A program made the translations under genes and the position numbers. From a phage: a stretch of 64,000 nt of DNA. Under the pieces are notes generated by a model that worked only from the letters and a program-made list of their open reading frames with translations, was not told where the DNA came from and searched no databases. The stretch lies in the sequence record PZ445428.1. The stretch is one strand, 5' to 3'. Positions 32,270 to 53,537 of the stretch are shown one piece after another. Numbering within the stretch: position 1 is the first letter of the stretch; every line of letters begins with the position of its first letter.

Positions 32270-32299
32270 ATTATACTAGATTTCGAGAGAATTTAGCAA
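32270..32299 (-). promoter_or_regulatory. Early promoter cassette (copy B of a tandem pair)
   Basis: Minus strand TTGCTA-18 nt-TATAAT then ATATACATAAATTCGAGGAG. Confidence 0.45.
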
Positions 32300-32370
32300 G
32301 TACAATTTTTATTTTTCTGCTTCGGACTTTCTTATCAATCCGAAACTTTCTCTCTCAAATTTATGTATAT

Positions 32371-36850: not shown

Positions 36851-36880
36851 ATTATACCAAATCTTTAAGCGATTCAGCAA
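36851..36880 (-). promoter_or_regulatory. Candidate promoter for DNA polymerase gene
   Basis: Minus strand TTGCTG-18 nt-TATAAT; lies in the 3' end of the primase gene. Confidence 0.35.
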
Positions 36881-37742
36881 CTAAAATTTCAATACGTTGT
36901 GCTAACGTATCGATCTCTTCTTTATTAAGATCACCTGGGTCTTTTCCTTCAGGAAGAAGGAAGTTACCAACTACAGGTGTTAAACGTGTTTTTGTACGGA
37001 TTAATTTAGCCAATGCTTGGGCAGCTTTATTACCCGAAGCATCGTTATCTAGTAAGATAACTACTACTCTAACTCCAGCAATAATATATGGGCTGAACTT
37101 ATCTGCAATGTTATCAGAAGTAAACTGATGTGTACCAAAGCAACAAGAGGCATAGTTTATCCCATTATCTTCTAGGTTCAACATATCAAAGATGCCTTCA
37201 ACTAGAACGAGAACTGGAGTATTATATCGTACAGGAAAAATCGGGGGTGAAACTTGTTTAGGTTTTACTAAGTATTTAGGAGGGGCAGAACTGTTTATAG
37301 AACGACCCAGGAATAGGATATTACGTCCAACAGCATCTGTTATTGGGAACACGATTCTGCCTTCCCAGTCTGCTTGATGTTGGAAAGCAAAATATTTCTT
37401 CAAGGTCTTAGAACTGATACCTCGGAAATCACCTTCGAAAAGGTAAGCAGATTCAGGAATTGCAAGATTCGTAGATCCATTCCTGATCTCTGAAATCTTT
37501 TTACGTACTTGTGACAATCTTGGTGACTGTCTGTACTGAGTCTCATTAAAATAATGGTAAATGCTCGGTATACCTTTACCGAAGCCGCAACTCAAGCAAT
37601 GCATAACTCCTGATTCAGGATCAATACGTAAACTTGGGTGCTTATCATCATGATCTGGGTTGAGACAACAGATGAGGATGTCCCCACCTGTGTCTTTGTA
37701 TTCAATGCCTTTCAGATCAAGTAGTTCTGTTATCCTACTCAT
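36852..37742 (-). CDS. DNA primase (DnaG-like, zinc finger plus TOPRIM)
   Basis: CLNPDHDDKHPSLRI...HCLSCG zinc-binding motif and VEGIFDM TOPRIM-like motif. Confidence 0.7.
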   Translation of the reverse strand: MSRITELLDLKGIEYKDTGGDILICCLNPDHDDKHPSLRIDPESGVMHCLSCGFGKGIPSIYHYFNETQYRQSPRLSQVRKKISEIRNGSTNLAIPESAYLFEGDFRGISSKTLKKYFAFQHQADWEGRIVFPITDAVGRNILFLGRSINSSAPPKYLVKPKQVSPPIFPVRYNTPVLVLVEGIFDMLNLEDNGINYASCCFGTHQFTSDNIADKFSPYIIAGVRVVVILLDNDASGNKAAQALAKLIRTKTRLTPVVGNFLLPEGKDPGDLNKEEIDTLAQRIEILVAESLKDLV

Positions 37743-39211
37743 ATATCTTTGGCCTCTTCACCTGAGGAATTTTCTGGTTTTTCTTTCTTAGCACGTTTAG
37801 GTTGGGCTGGTTTATCCTTCTCGATCGGAATAACAAATTCAGCTTCCATTTGAGTGATATCTTCCATTGCCAAGTTAGTAGTGTTATCCATTCGTAGAGT
37901 TTCCCAGTTCATCTTAGGCATAAACTTCACACTATCAGAGGAACGAGTCTTAACGAAGTCAAACATAATAGCACCCTGACCATTATCAGCTTTAGCAGCA
38001 TTAAGGTTGGCAGCCATGTCTGCGGAATCAAGGATACCTTTAGACATACGAGTTCTACCGTCTTGATCAATCTGGTAAGGAGCTACACCAGCAACATTAT
38101 GTTTCTGGCATATAGATTTGAAAGATGAACTTACAACCATCTGCTCTTTCCAGTCATACATGTCAATGGTTTTGGAATCTGGAAGTCTAGTCTGGTTAAT
38201 GTAGTCCAGTAGAGCTACAGTAACTTTATCACCATACTTAGCAACTAGTTTGTTTAGTTCTACGTCTACTGTAGTAATGGAGAGTTCGGGATCATACACA
38301 ACGATCATTGGAGTATGTAACTCATGACTTTCTAACAGCTTACTTTCCATATCATAGAAGTCGCTCATTCTAGCCATTGTGTACTGCTTAACGAAGTTAT
38401 CGAAAAGTTCTTCACCACCATTAAACATTCTAGCCCTAGTTCTTGCTAATCTCAAAAGAGGAGCGCCATCAAGGGTGTTGTTACGCATTGCCAGTGCAGA
38501 TACACCAGCTAACATTGCTAAATTACGCCTAAACACTTCGTGCTCTTTCATCTCAATTGAGAAATATGGAGCAATGTCTCCATTCAAATATTGCTGAACC
38601 TGTATGTTTGAACAGATAATGGATTTACCAGTACCACGCCAACCACCAAGCAGTAACGTTTCTGTACGAGCTAAACCAATTTGCGCGTCGAACTCATTAC
38701 AAATACCAAGAGCAATCATGTTAAGTTTGGTATCTTCTTCTCTCTGGAAAATACGCATTGTGTCTGCGTTGAATACCTTTCCAGTATTCGTTACTTTCTC
38801 TTCTAATTTTAAGTGAAGGGAGGCAACCCTGTTGAGAATTTCTCCCTGATCCAGCATTGTTAAATCTTGAAGCACGTCTGTTTCTAGAAGTTTCAGGAAT
38901 AGATCCTGTGTATATTCAGCTTCTAGGACTTCAAGTGCCTGTTCCATGCTCACTTCTGGAATTTGAGTGTTAGCTAAGACGACTAGAGCTTGAGAAAGGC
39001 GGGCGTTCCTGTTGGCCTCAAGCATAAGTGCGTCAATGGACGGCATTGCGTTATATTTTTTATAATAATTCTGGACGGCTTGGTAAATTGAGGAGAAAGC
39101 GTCATTAAAATGATCTTTATGCAGTTTTGAGAATGTTTCCAATGCTATTTGTTTCTGTTCAGAAGCCAGAAGCATCTTCAACACTACAGCTTGCACGTTA
39201 AACAAGGTCAT
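37739..39211 (-). CDS. DnaB-like replicative helicase
   Basis: Walker A LLGGWRGTGKS in C-terminal RecA-like domain. Start set to ATG 39211 after AAGGAGAA; track ORF begins at 39262. Confidence 0.65.
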   Translation of the reverse strand: MTLFNVQAVVLKMLLASEQKQIALETFSKLHKDHFNDAFSSIYQAVQNYYKKYNAMPSIDALMLEANRNARLSQALVVLANTQIPEVSMEQALEVLEAEYTQDLFLKLLETDVLQDLTMLDQGEILNRVASLHLKLEEKVTNTGKVFNADTMRIFQREEDTKLNMIALGICNEFDAQIGLARTETLLLGGWRGTGKSIICSNIQVQQYLNGDIAPYFSIEMKEHEVFRRNLAMLAGVSALAMRNNTLDGAPLLRLARTRARMFNGGEELFDNFVKQYTMARMSDFYDMESKLLESHELHTPMIVVYDPELSITTVDVELNKLVAKYGDKVTVALLDYINQTRLPDSKTIDMYDWKEQMVVSSSFKSICQKHNVAGVAPYQIDQDGRTRMSKGILDSADMAANLNAAKADNGQGAIMFDFVKTRSSDSVKFMPKMNWETLRMDNTTNLAMEDITQMEAEFVIPIEKDKPAQPKRAKKEKPENSSGEEAKDI

Positions 39212-39216
39212 TCTCC

Positions 39217-39262
39217 TTTGCACGCTTTCGTGCCTTCTAAATGCAAAAAGGGGAAGGAGCAT
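39217..39262 (-). terminator. Terminator-like GC-rich hairpins after DNA-binding repeat protein gene
   Basis: Minus strand GGGGAGGGGG...CCTTCCCC then TTTTT, and GCACGAAAGCGTGC (GAAA loop) just before the next RBS. Confidence 0.4.
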
Positions 39263-40063: not shown

Positions 40064-40834
40064 TTATTTTTTCTCCAATAGTTCTTTAATCGACAGGATT
40101 TCTATCCCATTCGTTTCGGCTTTCTTATAAGATGAGGAAGAACGCTTTGATTCATCCTCACAGATGAGGTAGTTTACGTCTTTGGTAACGGACTTCTTAA
40201 CCGTATATCCTAGACTTTCTAAGTAGTTTGTTGCATCCGTTCTATTTGCAAAATCTTGCAAAGAACCGGTAATACATACCACGATTCCGTTCGGTTGAGC
40301 AACTAAATCATCGATAAAGATGATATCAGCTTTTGTGCCCCGAATACCAGAACTAAATTTCCATGGTAGTTCGATAACATCCTTGCCTTGTGGGGAATTT
40401 AGCCAGGCTTTATAATTTTCTCCAGCTTTGCCGTCAGCCTTAACATCATTAAAACTAATGCAACCCTGGGATAGCTTTTTAGCAGCAACCTCTCCAATCA
40501 GAGGGATTCCTAAAGAACCGAGAACTGAACCAAAGTCAATGTCTCCGCGAACCTTAGTATTTAACTCGCTAATTAACTTAGCGGCAACCTTACTTCCCAC
40601 AGCTCCGACCAAATCTTCTTCGGTCAGGTAAAACAGTTCTGAGATCTTAGTCAGTTCCAGCTTTTCAATTGTTTTCGGGCCAAAGCCCTTTAACTTCATC
40701 TTTGTGCAGAAGTTCTCAATTAACTTACTTGACTGAGCTGGACAGTTGGACTTATTCCGACAGAATAATTGTCCGTTGACAAGATCTAGCTTAGAACCAC
40801 AAGAGGGACATTGTGTTGGAATTTCGATTTTCAT
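40064..40834 (-). CDS. ligB: NAD-dependent DNA ligase, C-terminal part (zinc finger/HhH/BRCT-like)
   Basis: Begins CPSCGSKLDLVNGQLFCRNKSNCPAQ (LigA-type Cys4 zinc finger) then HhH-like GFGPKTIEKL. ATG at 40834 after AAGGAAG. Confidence 0.7.
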   Translation of the reverse strand: MKIEIPTQCPSCGSKLDLVNGQLFCRNKSNCPAQSSKLIENFCTKMKLKGFGPKTIEKLELTKISELFYLTEEDLVGAVGSKVAAKLISELNTKVRGDIDFGSVLGSLGIPLIGEVAAKKLSQGCISFNDVKADGKAGENYKAWLNSPQGKDVIELPWKFSSGIRGTKADIIFIDDLVAQPNGIVVCITGSLQDFANRTDATNYLESLGYTVKKSVTKDVNYLICEDESKRSSSSYKKAETNGIEILSIKELLEKK

Positions 40835-40866
40835 CAAATTTCTTCCTTATCAATTTATATAACTAT

Positions 40867-40895
40867 TATAGCAAGTATTTAAGCATTTAGCAACT
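40867..40895 (-). promoter_or_regulatory. Early promoter cassette inside the ligA-ligB spacer
   Basis: Minus strand TTGCTA-17 nt-TATAAT then AGTTATATAAATTGATAAGGAAG and ATG 40834. Confidence 0.5.
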
Positions 40896-41040
40896 ACAAT
40901 TTTAACTAACTTTGCTTACCCTCGCCATAACTTTCTATCCCTCAACTGAATGATAATAGTATATACCTAAGCGGCGAAAATGTCAATAACCACTTTATAA
41001 TTCCGACATGGGAAACGGGTAGCAAAGGGTTATGAATTAC

Positions 41041-42012
41041 TTAATCTACTCGCTCTACAATACATGGGATTACACCACCAGCACGAATCACTCGAATCTG
41101 GCAACCGATCTCTAAATCGAGAGCGTTAATGTAATCAACGTTATTGAGAGTTGCTTTAATAATCTTGGCATCGTCAATAATTACCGGTTCGAAATATCCA
41201 ACAGGAGTTACTTTACCAGAAGCCCCTACCTGCCACTCAACTTTGAGAAGAGTTGTAATTTCGCCTTCTTCATCTTGTTTAATTGCATAAGCACCACGAG
41301 GATGTTTATTTGTCCAACCTTCACGGAAGAATTTGTTGTTGTCATTAATACGAACAACTTTACCATCCATTGGATACCAGTTGAAGTAGTTTTTAATATT
41401 CAGTACAGTGATGAAATCTTCGTTAGCTAACCAAGACATATCATCTAAGTAAGAGCCTGTAATACCTACAGAATCTTCGGAACACTGAATACCATAAGCT
41501 ACAAAGATCAATCCACCTTCCGCAATACGTTCGATGAAGTCATCTTCTTCTTTTAAGTTAATAGCACCAGAAGCGTAGTTACGTTTGTTTTCTACTTCTT
41601 TAGTGATAAGAACTTCACCAGTGATTTGAGTTGGTACTTTCTGAGAAATCTTTTTCGGAATGTTCAGCAATCTAACGTTGCTTGTGACATCATTTCCTAG
41701 AATACCATTACCACGAGTTAACGCTTGAACAAACGTTCCGTCGATATACAACAGAGAAATTGCGCAACCGTCTAGCTTATCAGTTTCTACATCATCAAGA
41801 GTAGTGAATGGAGCTTTATCACCCCGATCGAAGTAAACTTTCTGCAAAGAATACATACGATACAGATGTGGGATATCACCTTTCGGACCGATGGCATCTT
41901 CCGCTGTTGGGAAACGTTTAAGCAGACGATCATACTCAGCATCAGAGATAATACTATAACCCTGATAATACGCTTCTTGACAACGTTGGATAAACTCTTT
42001 TACATTATTCAT
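41041..42012 (-). CDS. ligA: NAD-dependent DNA ligase, N-terminal adenylation/OB part
   Basis: KLDGCAIS (KxDG adenylation motif), N-terminal AYYQGYSIISDAEYDRL NAD-binding-like segment. Start set to ATG 42012 (MNNVKEF); track begins at TTG 42054. Confidence 0.75.
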   Translation of the reverse strand: MNNVKEFIQRCQEAYYQGYSIISDAEYDRLLKRFPTAEDAIGPKGDIPHLYRMYSLQKVYFDRGDKAPFTTLDDVETDKLDGCAISLLYIDGTFVQALTRGNGILGNDVTSNVRLLNIPKKISQKVPTQITGEVLITKEVENKRNYASGAINLKEEDDFIERIAEGGLIFVAYGIQCSEDSVGITGSYLDDMSWLANEDFITVLNIKNYFNWYPMDGKVVRINDNNKFFREGWTNKHPRGAYAIKQDEEGEITTLLKVEWQVGASGKVTPVGYFEPVIIDDAKIIKATLNNVDYINALDLEIGCQIRVIRAGGVIPCIVERVD

Positions 42013-42205
42013 CGTCGGCGATTTCCATCTTGAGTTCTTTATTATACTGCGCAACCATACCAGCTAAATCAGCAGATTCTTTCAGAAACGCATCTCTGTA
42101 CGCTTTTTGATTTACTGTGCCGATACTATCTTGATATTTAATGCGAGCCATTGAAAGCAAATTAAGTTTTGCTTGAATTTTGGGAAGTGTTACTGTCATT
42201 GCCAT
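42005..42205 (-). CDS. Hypothetical small protein
   Basis: 66 aa from ATG 42205, which follows the conserved GAGAGGA cassette RBS; stop overlaps ligA start. Confidence 0.35.
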   Translation of the reverse strand: MAMTVTLPKIQAKLNLLSMARIKYQDSIGTVNQKAYRDAFLKESADLAGMVAQYNKELKMEIADDE

Positions 42206-42234
42206 AATTGATCCTCTCATCAATTTATATAAAT

Positions 42235-42263
42235 ATTATATATTAAAATTGAGCTGAAAGCAA
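42235..42263 (-). promoter_or_regulatory. Early promoter cassette
   Basis: Minus strand TTGCTT-17 nt-TATAAT then ATTTATATAAATTGATGAGAGGA and ATG 42205. Confidence 0.5.
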
Positions 42264-53396: not shown

Positions 53397-53508
53397 CCCG
53401 CGCCCATGTACGCGATATAAAATGATTATCTAGTATCATACATCTCCCTCTATAAGCAAGCAAATTTTTTATTTAACTGCAATGTCATAGGCTTATTTAA
53501 AATTGTAG

Positions 53509-53537
53509 TTGCTTTTTACTGTAGATATTGGTATAAT
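53509..53537 (+). promoter_or_regulatory. Sigma70-type promoter with extended -10 (phoH operon, proximal)
   Basis: TTGCTT-17 nt-TATAAT preceded by TGG (TGn-type extended -10). Confidence 0.45.

Follow-up and report, generated by a model that had tools for sequence, protein, structure and literature searches.

Analysis of the split NAD-dependent DNA ligase locus of a T5-like Escherichia phage

The NAD-dependent DNA ligase of Escherichia coli, LigA (PDB 2OWO), is a single polypeptide of 671 aa, in which the Ia, adenylation, OB-fold, zinc-finger, HhH, and BRCT domains follow one another in series. In the phage DNA studied here, the same series of domains is divided over two open reading frames (ORFs) on the same strand, with approximately 200 bp between them. 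These ORFs lie in a stretch of 64,000 nucleotides from sequence record PZ445428.1, which is referred to as the window. Their arrangement raises the question of whether a functional ligase is encoded at this locus, whether this enzyme would consist of one chain or two, what the DNA between the two halves does, and how the enzyme came to be divided.

Domains of the two halves and position of the break

The 2.4 kb around the ligase locus were 100% identical to Escherichia phage TrudiGerster (MZ501108), a T5-like phage (Demerecviridae, Markadamsvirinae, Epseptimavirus). When this 2.4-kb locus was used as a query, 493 phage records matched; in 430, the match extended over 80% or more of the locus, mostly with 80–90% identity. 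The following features make up the locus:

40064–40834, minus strand: ligB, 256 aa from an ATG start, annotated as "NAD-dependent DNA ligase B subunit" (bas27_0037), with a Cys4 zinc finger (C9/C12/C25/C31), an HhH region, and a BRCT domain
40835–41040, minus strand: the gap between ligA and ligB, non-coding, 206 bp
40839–40913, minus strand: orthologue of the T5 promoter P-K 28a, with -35 box TTGCTA at 40893–40888 and extended -10 box TG-TATAAT at 40870–40865
40842–40848, minus strand: ligB ribosome-binding site (RBS) AAGGAAG, read from the sequence, 7 nt 5' of the ATG at 40834
40932–41006, minus strand: orthologue of the T5 promoter P-K 28b, with -35 box TTGACA at 40986–40981 and -10 box TATACT at 40963–40958
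41041–42012, minus strand: ligA from its annotated ATG, annotated as "NAD-dependent DNA ligase A subunit" (bas27_0038), with the Ia, adenylation, and OB domains

Each half was assigned to a distinct part of the ligase by profile searches. LigA contained the adenylation domain (PF01653, 82 bits against a cut-off of 27) and the OB-fold (PF03120, 76 bits against a cut-off of 32.9), the latter at residues 267–336 of the 337-aa ORF that is obtained in a mechanical listing, where the frame extends to a TTG at 42054. LigB, whose N-terminus reads MKIEIPTQCPSCGS, contained the BRCT domain (PF00533, 35.8 bits against a cut-off of 21.3); its HhH region stayed below the cut-off by Pfam alone (19.3 against 27) and falls within the part of LigB that matched positions 388–652 of phrog_3869. 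Both proteins matched a phage protein family from end to end (LigA phrog_3359, E 7e-165; LigB phrog_3498, E 9e-133), and on phrog_3869, a profile of full-length phage ligases, they covered complementary, abutting parts, with LigA at 9–381.

Alignment to E. coli LigA allowed individual residues to be compared. K79 of LigA, which is part of a KLDG motif, aligns with the adenylation lysine K115 of E. coli, and K79, D81, and G82 were invariant in 13 diverse LigA homologues. In the Ia domain, the segment DAEYDRL aligns with E. coli residues 32–38, and LigA residues 21–35 (IISDAEYDRLLKRFP) align with the NMN-binding motif at E. coli residues 29–43 (EIPDAEYDRLMRELR). Among the same 13 homologues, Y15 and D28 were invariant and Y27 nearly so; we take the role of these Ia residues, NMN binding and dependence on NAD rather than ATP, to be that found by mutagenesis of E. 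coli LigA. The OB part of LigA (residues 213–320) aligns with E. coli 282–389, so that its last residue, 323, projects to approximately 392. LigB aligns with E. coli 402–529 and, in the BRCT domain, 587–666, with residue 3 corresponding to E. coli 402 and the four cysteines falling within the zinc-finger segment.

In E. coli LigA numbering, these alignments place the break at approximately 392/400, within the variable linker that joins the OB-fold to the zinc finger. Approximately seven residues of this linker (E. coli 393–399) lack a counterpart in the phage proteins, and the phage HhH region is shorter. In related phage ligases in which the two parts are fused, this linker varied from about 6 to 25 residues in the alignment, and the ligA stop and the ligB start fall inside the linker, with no extra residues. 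The canonical single-polypeptide architecture is absent from this locus: a stop follows the OB-fold, after which come the 206-bp gap and a separate start for ligB. Together, the two chains comprise 579 aa (323 for LigA and 256 for LigB), against the 671 aa of the E. coli enzyme. Purifying selection acts on both halves, as dN/dS relative to T5 is 0.13 for ligA and 0.10 for ligB.

An earlier note on this DNA, made from the letters alone, had described a half with a KxDG motif that ends in IVERVD and a zinc-finger half as separate ORFs of one strand, and this description holds: both are on the minus strand, and LigA carries KLDG and ends in ...VIPCIVERVD. Its placement of the split at the boundary between OB-fold and zinc finger is borne out by the alignments to E. 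coli LigA and to fused relatives and by the mapping onto phrog_3869, while the ligase relationship of the second ORF follows from Pfam BRCT, from phrog_3498 and phrog_3869, and from a match to PDB chain 9hu3_B. The spacer of 203 bp given there (40838–41040) results if an in-frame TTG at 40837, 3 bases 5' of the ligB ATG, is counted as the start; from the annotated ATG, the spacer is 206 bp. A continuous frame that could be recovered by correcting a frameshift, which the note had named as one ground for doubting a split, was looked for and not found. The 206-bp gap contains several stop codons in each of the three frames, and ligA and ligB are in different frames, so that no single frameshift correction yields one ORF.

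Directly upstream of ligA lies an ORF of 71–72 aa (bas27_0039, 42005–42223, minus strand), which overlaps the ligA ATG by 8 nt and belongs to a family of unknown function (phrog_8267). It has no counterpart in T5, to which identity falls to 0–12% over 42000–42199; in T5, a promoter abuts ligA where the window has this ORF. Just upstream of it, at 42240–42219, lies a box that resembles the -10 region and the downstream part of P-K 28a (TATAATATTTATATAAATTGAT).

Promoters and ribosome-binding site in the gap

A consensus scan placed the two best promoter-like sites of a 2.9-kb region in the gap, both on the coding strand: TTGACA-17-TATACT (11/12 matches, 40986–40958) and TTGCTA-17-TG-TATAAT (10/12 matches, 40893–40865). 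As the region as a whole contained 8 such sites, a total that was not above the 7.0 expected from shuffled sequence, the scan alone proves little. Both sites coincide with promoters annotated in the T5 reference genome (NC_005859), P-K 28b and P-K 28a, respectively. The two 75-nt promoter features of T5 are matched in the window at 75/75 nt for P-K 28b and 74/75 nt for P-K 28a, and the stretch from 41006 to 40835 has one mismatch to T5. The names P-K 28a and P-K 28b go back to the collection of functional T5 promoters assembled in Bujard's laboratory in the 1980s. The earlier note had read a full early promoter cassette and an RBS from this spacer, which in fact appears to hold two tandem promoters, with AAGGAAG in front of ligB.

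The promoter block is the best-conserved DNA of the ligase locus, being 98–100% identical to T5, the IMG/VR relative L005, and smaug, against 69–90% for the body of ligA. As the synonymous divergence of the flanking genes amounts to 0.2–0.76, the near-identity of the block argues that it is under strong constraint. P-K 28a is retained even in Proteus phage 1. The ligB RBS is kept in T5 and smaug, and reads AAAGAGGAA in Proteus phage 1.

The T5 locus offers the closest comparison. Its ligA and ligB genes (T5.116 and T5.117) have the same order, strand relation, and split point as those of the window, with 85% protein identity for LigA and 94% for LigB. Its gap of 202 bp, compared to 206 bp in the window, contains the same two promoters and the same RBS, and the same genes follow downstream (D5, helicase, and primase). 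Based on the T5 annotation and the consensus matches, both promoters are expected to fire in TrudiGerster, with transcripts of the minus strand that would start near 40951 (P-K 28b) and 40858 (P-K 28a). In T5-like coliphages, the gap would then act as regulatory DNA, composed of two tandem, strong sigma-70 early promoters and the RBS of ligB. These promoters would drive ligB as well as the replication genes behind it (those for the D5 DNA-binding protein, helicase, and primase), into which transcription probably continues. No terminator-like site was found by consensus scan between ligA and the gap promoters, so that read-through from upstream may add to the expression of ligB.

Elsewhere in the window, the upstream part of P-K 28a (TTAAAATTGTAGTTGCT) recurs as short copies, exact or nearly so, at 53497–53513 (plus strand) and 32291–32309 (minus strand), which probably mark further early promoters of this design.

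Probable assembly of one enzyme from two polypeptides

Searches against the PDB linked both genes to an enzyme whose structure has been solved. LigA matched chain A of 9HU3 (9hu3_A, E 1e-103) and LigB matched chain B (9hu3_B, E 6e-79), and the chains of 9I5I were matched as well. A predicted model of LigA (pLDDT 82.8), when used for a structure search of the PDB, also returned 9HU3 and 9I5I first. The former entry, released on 2026-01-14, is titled [quoted passage not shown]; the title of the latter, released on 2026-02-18, ends in "(random sequence)". The T5-like Providencia phage vB_PreS_PR1 encodes a LigB with 100% identity to chain B. The PR1 enzyme, with a chain A of 339 aa and a chain B of 248 aa, is orthologous to that of the window (approximately 53–56% identity), was crystallized as a heterodimer on nicked DNA, and is encoded with a gap of 192 bp (locus L016).

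The structures imply that the PR1 enzyme seals nicks in an NAD+-dependent manner. By analogy to this orthologue, at the 53–56% identity given above, LigA and LigB of TrudiGerster are likewise expected to form a heterodimer. We estimate a probability of about 95% that the locus encodes a T5-type heterodimeric NAD-dependent DNA ligase. The assembly from two polypeptides, which the earlier note had deduced, has in this sense been seen directly in PR1. In such an enzyme, LigA would provide the catalytic core (the domains Ia, adenylation, and OB, including lysine K79), and LigB, as a separate polypeptide, the part that clamps and targets the DNA (zinc finger, HhH, and BRCT). Both would associate non-covalently around a nick and jointly do the work of the single-chain bacterial LigA.

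The split ligase is real, and it is already known: it is annotated in T5 along with its promoters, hundreds of relatives carry genes labeled as subunits A and B, and the structure of an orthologue has been solved. The T5 genes have been given as ligase subunits A and B (PMC3632103), and the T5 ligase as two ORFs (PMC3326045). In the literature searched, no paper on the heterodimeric ligase of PR1 or T5 was found; the PR1 enzyme is described here from the PDB titles. The annotation is not uniform among relatives: in Proteus phage 1 (MT679223; locus L004, 1185–2343), ligA is labeled "hypothetical protein", and a 55-aa ORF after it, which matches no family, is labeled "replicative DNA helicase".

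Two other readings of the locus deny that two functional chains are made. The two ORFs could be an artefact or a gene in decay, caused by a sequencing frameshift, an assembly error, or pseudogenization. Only the bare fact that a gene that is usually single appears as two ORFs speaks for this, but a 206-bp gap with stops in every frame is beyond the repair of a frameshift. Moreover, the same layout recurs in over 490 phage genomes that were sequenced independently and in 80 metagenomic contigs, dN/dS is about 0.1 in both halves, and the orthologous two-chain enzyme has been crystallized on DNA. With stops in all frames, ligB in another frame, and the layout conserved in hundreds of genomes, we rejected a frameshift or other artefact, the probability of which we consider negligible.

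Alternatively, one polypeptide might still be made from the two ORFs, by removal of an intron, by ribosomal bypassing, or by trans-splicing of a split intein. Phage genes interrupted by introns, inteins, or a bypassed coding gap do exist, T4 gene 60 being the example of bypassing. No Rfam intron or ribozyme family reached its threshold in the gap of the window, however: a scan with permissive filters gave one match (E 0.18, 15.5 bits against a gathering score of 38), which lies outside the gap, and the gap RNA did not fold significantly better than shuffled sequence (z = -0.84). An intron or ribozyme in the gap was rejected on these grounds. Furthermore, ligB has an RBS and an ATG of its own, the junction has no extra residues that could belong to intein halves, and the PDB entries list separate chains A and B under the term "heterodimeric". 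A single joined polypeptide is accordingly given next to no credence here.

Gap contents in relatives and the origin of the split

To what extent the split is shared was seen among relatives. The best 120 homologues of LigA among 5.8 billion proteins were 309–337 aa long, down to 46% identity, with the exception of one partial sequence of 240 aa. A survey of loci comprised 80 from IMG/VR and four from GenBank, 81 of which contained both halves. All 81 share one split point: ligA stops 1–12 codons after the OB domain and is followed by ligB on the same strand. The gaps ranged from approximately 50 to 1,550 bp; among 80 loci (the GenBank copy of TrudiGerster, L001, being left out), 17 had a gap of at most 60 bp, 30 of 61–100 bp, 16 of 101–250 bp, 4 of 251–500 bp, and 13 of more than 500 bp.

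A variety of genes was found in the longer gaps. Ten of the 81 loci (L026, L028, L031, L034, L041, L051, L057, L058, L069, and L077) had a T5orf172-like gene of about 120 aa in the gap, always directly upstream of ligB. Its match to Pfam T5orf172 was marginal (PF10544, 20.2 bits against a cut-off of 20), and it also matched phrog_681, "endonuclease", with an E-value of 6e-12. Two to four small conserved ORFs often go along with this gene, among them those for a CxxC...C protein and for another of about 73 aa. Other gaps contained genes for a GIY-YIG endonuclease with a NUMOD-like domain (L083), a thioredoxin (L031), a 2OG-Fe(II) oxygenase (L040), or a NADAR protein (L014). The junction of ligA and ligB is an insertion-tolerant slot, which is used by mobile endonuclease genes in relatives.

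The NADAR ORF (listed as 218 aa; PF08719, E 2e-31) fills the gap of a 104-kb T5-like contig (IMGVR_UViG_2974547928; L014, 4953–5609) and overlaps the stop of ligA. It may represent an accessory or counter-defence gene that lies between the halves of an NAD-using enzyme. In smaug and Proteus phage 1, one small ORF each overlaps the ligA stop. As these two ORFs gave no blastp hit to one another and matched no Pfam or PHROG family, their homology was rejected, and they were treated as independent insertions.

Fused, single-chain ligases of 555–586 aa were detected by an exhaustive HMMER search of cluster representatives, with 39–45% identity to LigA (P0154, 557 aa; P0156, 566 aa; P0173, P0176, P0178, P0181, and others). 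Ligases such as P0154 and P0156 share the compact size and the domains of the phage enzyme and have a short, variable linker between OB-fold and zinc finger; unlike ligA and ligB of the window, they are single ORFs. In a neighbour-joining tree of the N-terminal halves, a tree with long terminal branches and no support values, the fused forms were mostly basal to the split clade, with a few nested within it. This gives a hint that the fused forms are mostly basal.

How the split arose is a separate matter from what the locus does now. A homing endonuclease or another mobile cassette may have inserted into the linker of a once-continuous ligase gene and later have been lost, after which promoters took over the gap. 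Because it concerns the origin rather than the present function, such an insertion is compatible with the heterodimeric enzyme. It is consistent with the fused ligases, relatives of the same compact phage type whose linker is variable where the split lies, and with the endonuclease-type genes in the gaps of relatives, T5orf172-like in 10/81 and GIY-YIG with a NUMOD-like domain in L083. There is also a precedent in Aeromonas phage Aeh1, where nrdA is reportedly split by the homing endonuclease gene mobE, with products that reassemble into an active enzyme. The work, by Friedrich et al. (2007), is among the references of PMC3326045. As in the window, an essential enzyme of DNA metabolism is made there from two adjacent genes. 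In Aeh1, however, the endonuclease gene is still in the gap, whereas the window gap has promoters only and endonuclease-like genes occur only in distant relatives.

Several observations weaken the case for such an insertion. The gap of the window shows no similarity to the gap genes of relatives and is fully accounted for by two promoters and the RBS; it contains no ORF, and no free-standing endonuclease resides between the halves. To look for a remnant of an endonuclease, all gap ORFs of relatives were compared by tblastn with the window gap and with the window as a whole, which yielded no meaningful match apart from ligA itself, a hit that came from a mis-parsed locus (L033). The gaps of 47 of the 80 relatives surveyed are at most 100 bp, which leaves no room for a gene, and only some of the loci carry an endonuclease gene. 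What is inserted varies (NADAR, thioredoxin, 2OG-Fe(II) oxygenase, and unrelated small ORFs), a diversity that secondary insertions into a gap already present would explain just as well, and the tree that places fused forms near the base lacks support values. The earlier note had suggested that the spacer could be the footprint of an old insertion, such as a homing endonuclease or intron; GIY-YIG-type genes at the same position in relatives lend this some substance, but neither an intron signal nor a remnant was found in the gap. We therefore treat insertion of a mobile cassette as a tentative possibility, and an origin by a homing endonuclease in particular as plausible but unproven and, on balance, unlikely.

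A more elaborate scenario would have the junction as an old and recurrent landing site for endonucleases of the GIY-YIG superfamily, where one insertion into a fused ligase created the heterodimer, and the split was then kept because it allowed separate promoters and independent recombination. Taken as a whole, this chain of events seems rather doubtful to us.

A mobile endonuclease gene is also polymorphic nearby. In T5, the HNH endonuclease gene hegJ (P-TflX; L002, 5615–6148) lies between the genes for the D6 helicase and the primase, whereas the window lacks hegJ: its helicase (37739–39262) and primase (36852–37742) genes, both on the minus strand, share 4 nt, and no endonuclease gene separates them. 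T5 and the window differ in the presence of this mobile endonuclease, a polymorphism located about 1 kb from the ligase.

The two halves of the ligase have diverged unequally. Compared to T5 and smaug, ligA has a dS of 0.70–0.76 and approximately 85% protein identity, while ligB has a dS of 0.21–0.39 and 94–97% identity. The synonymous divergence of ligA is about twice that of ligB relative to T5 and three times relative to smaug, with the near-identical promoter block between them. This pattern points to a boundary of recombination at the gap or close by, across which the ligA and ligB halves may be exchanged independently.

With its known heterodimeric ligase, the locus offers a textbook-like case of an essential enzyme that tolerates a cut in an interdomain linker. 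The resulting gap would have become regulatory DNA in the T5-like coliphages; in environmental relatives, it would accommodate mobile and accessory genes. As an exercise in comparative bookkeeping, the survey of these loci may provide a starting point for studying how genes in pieces arise.
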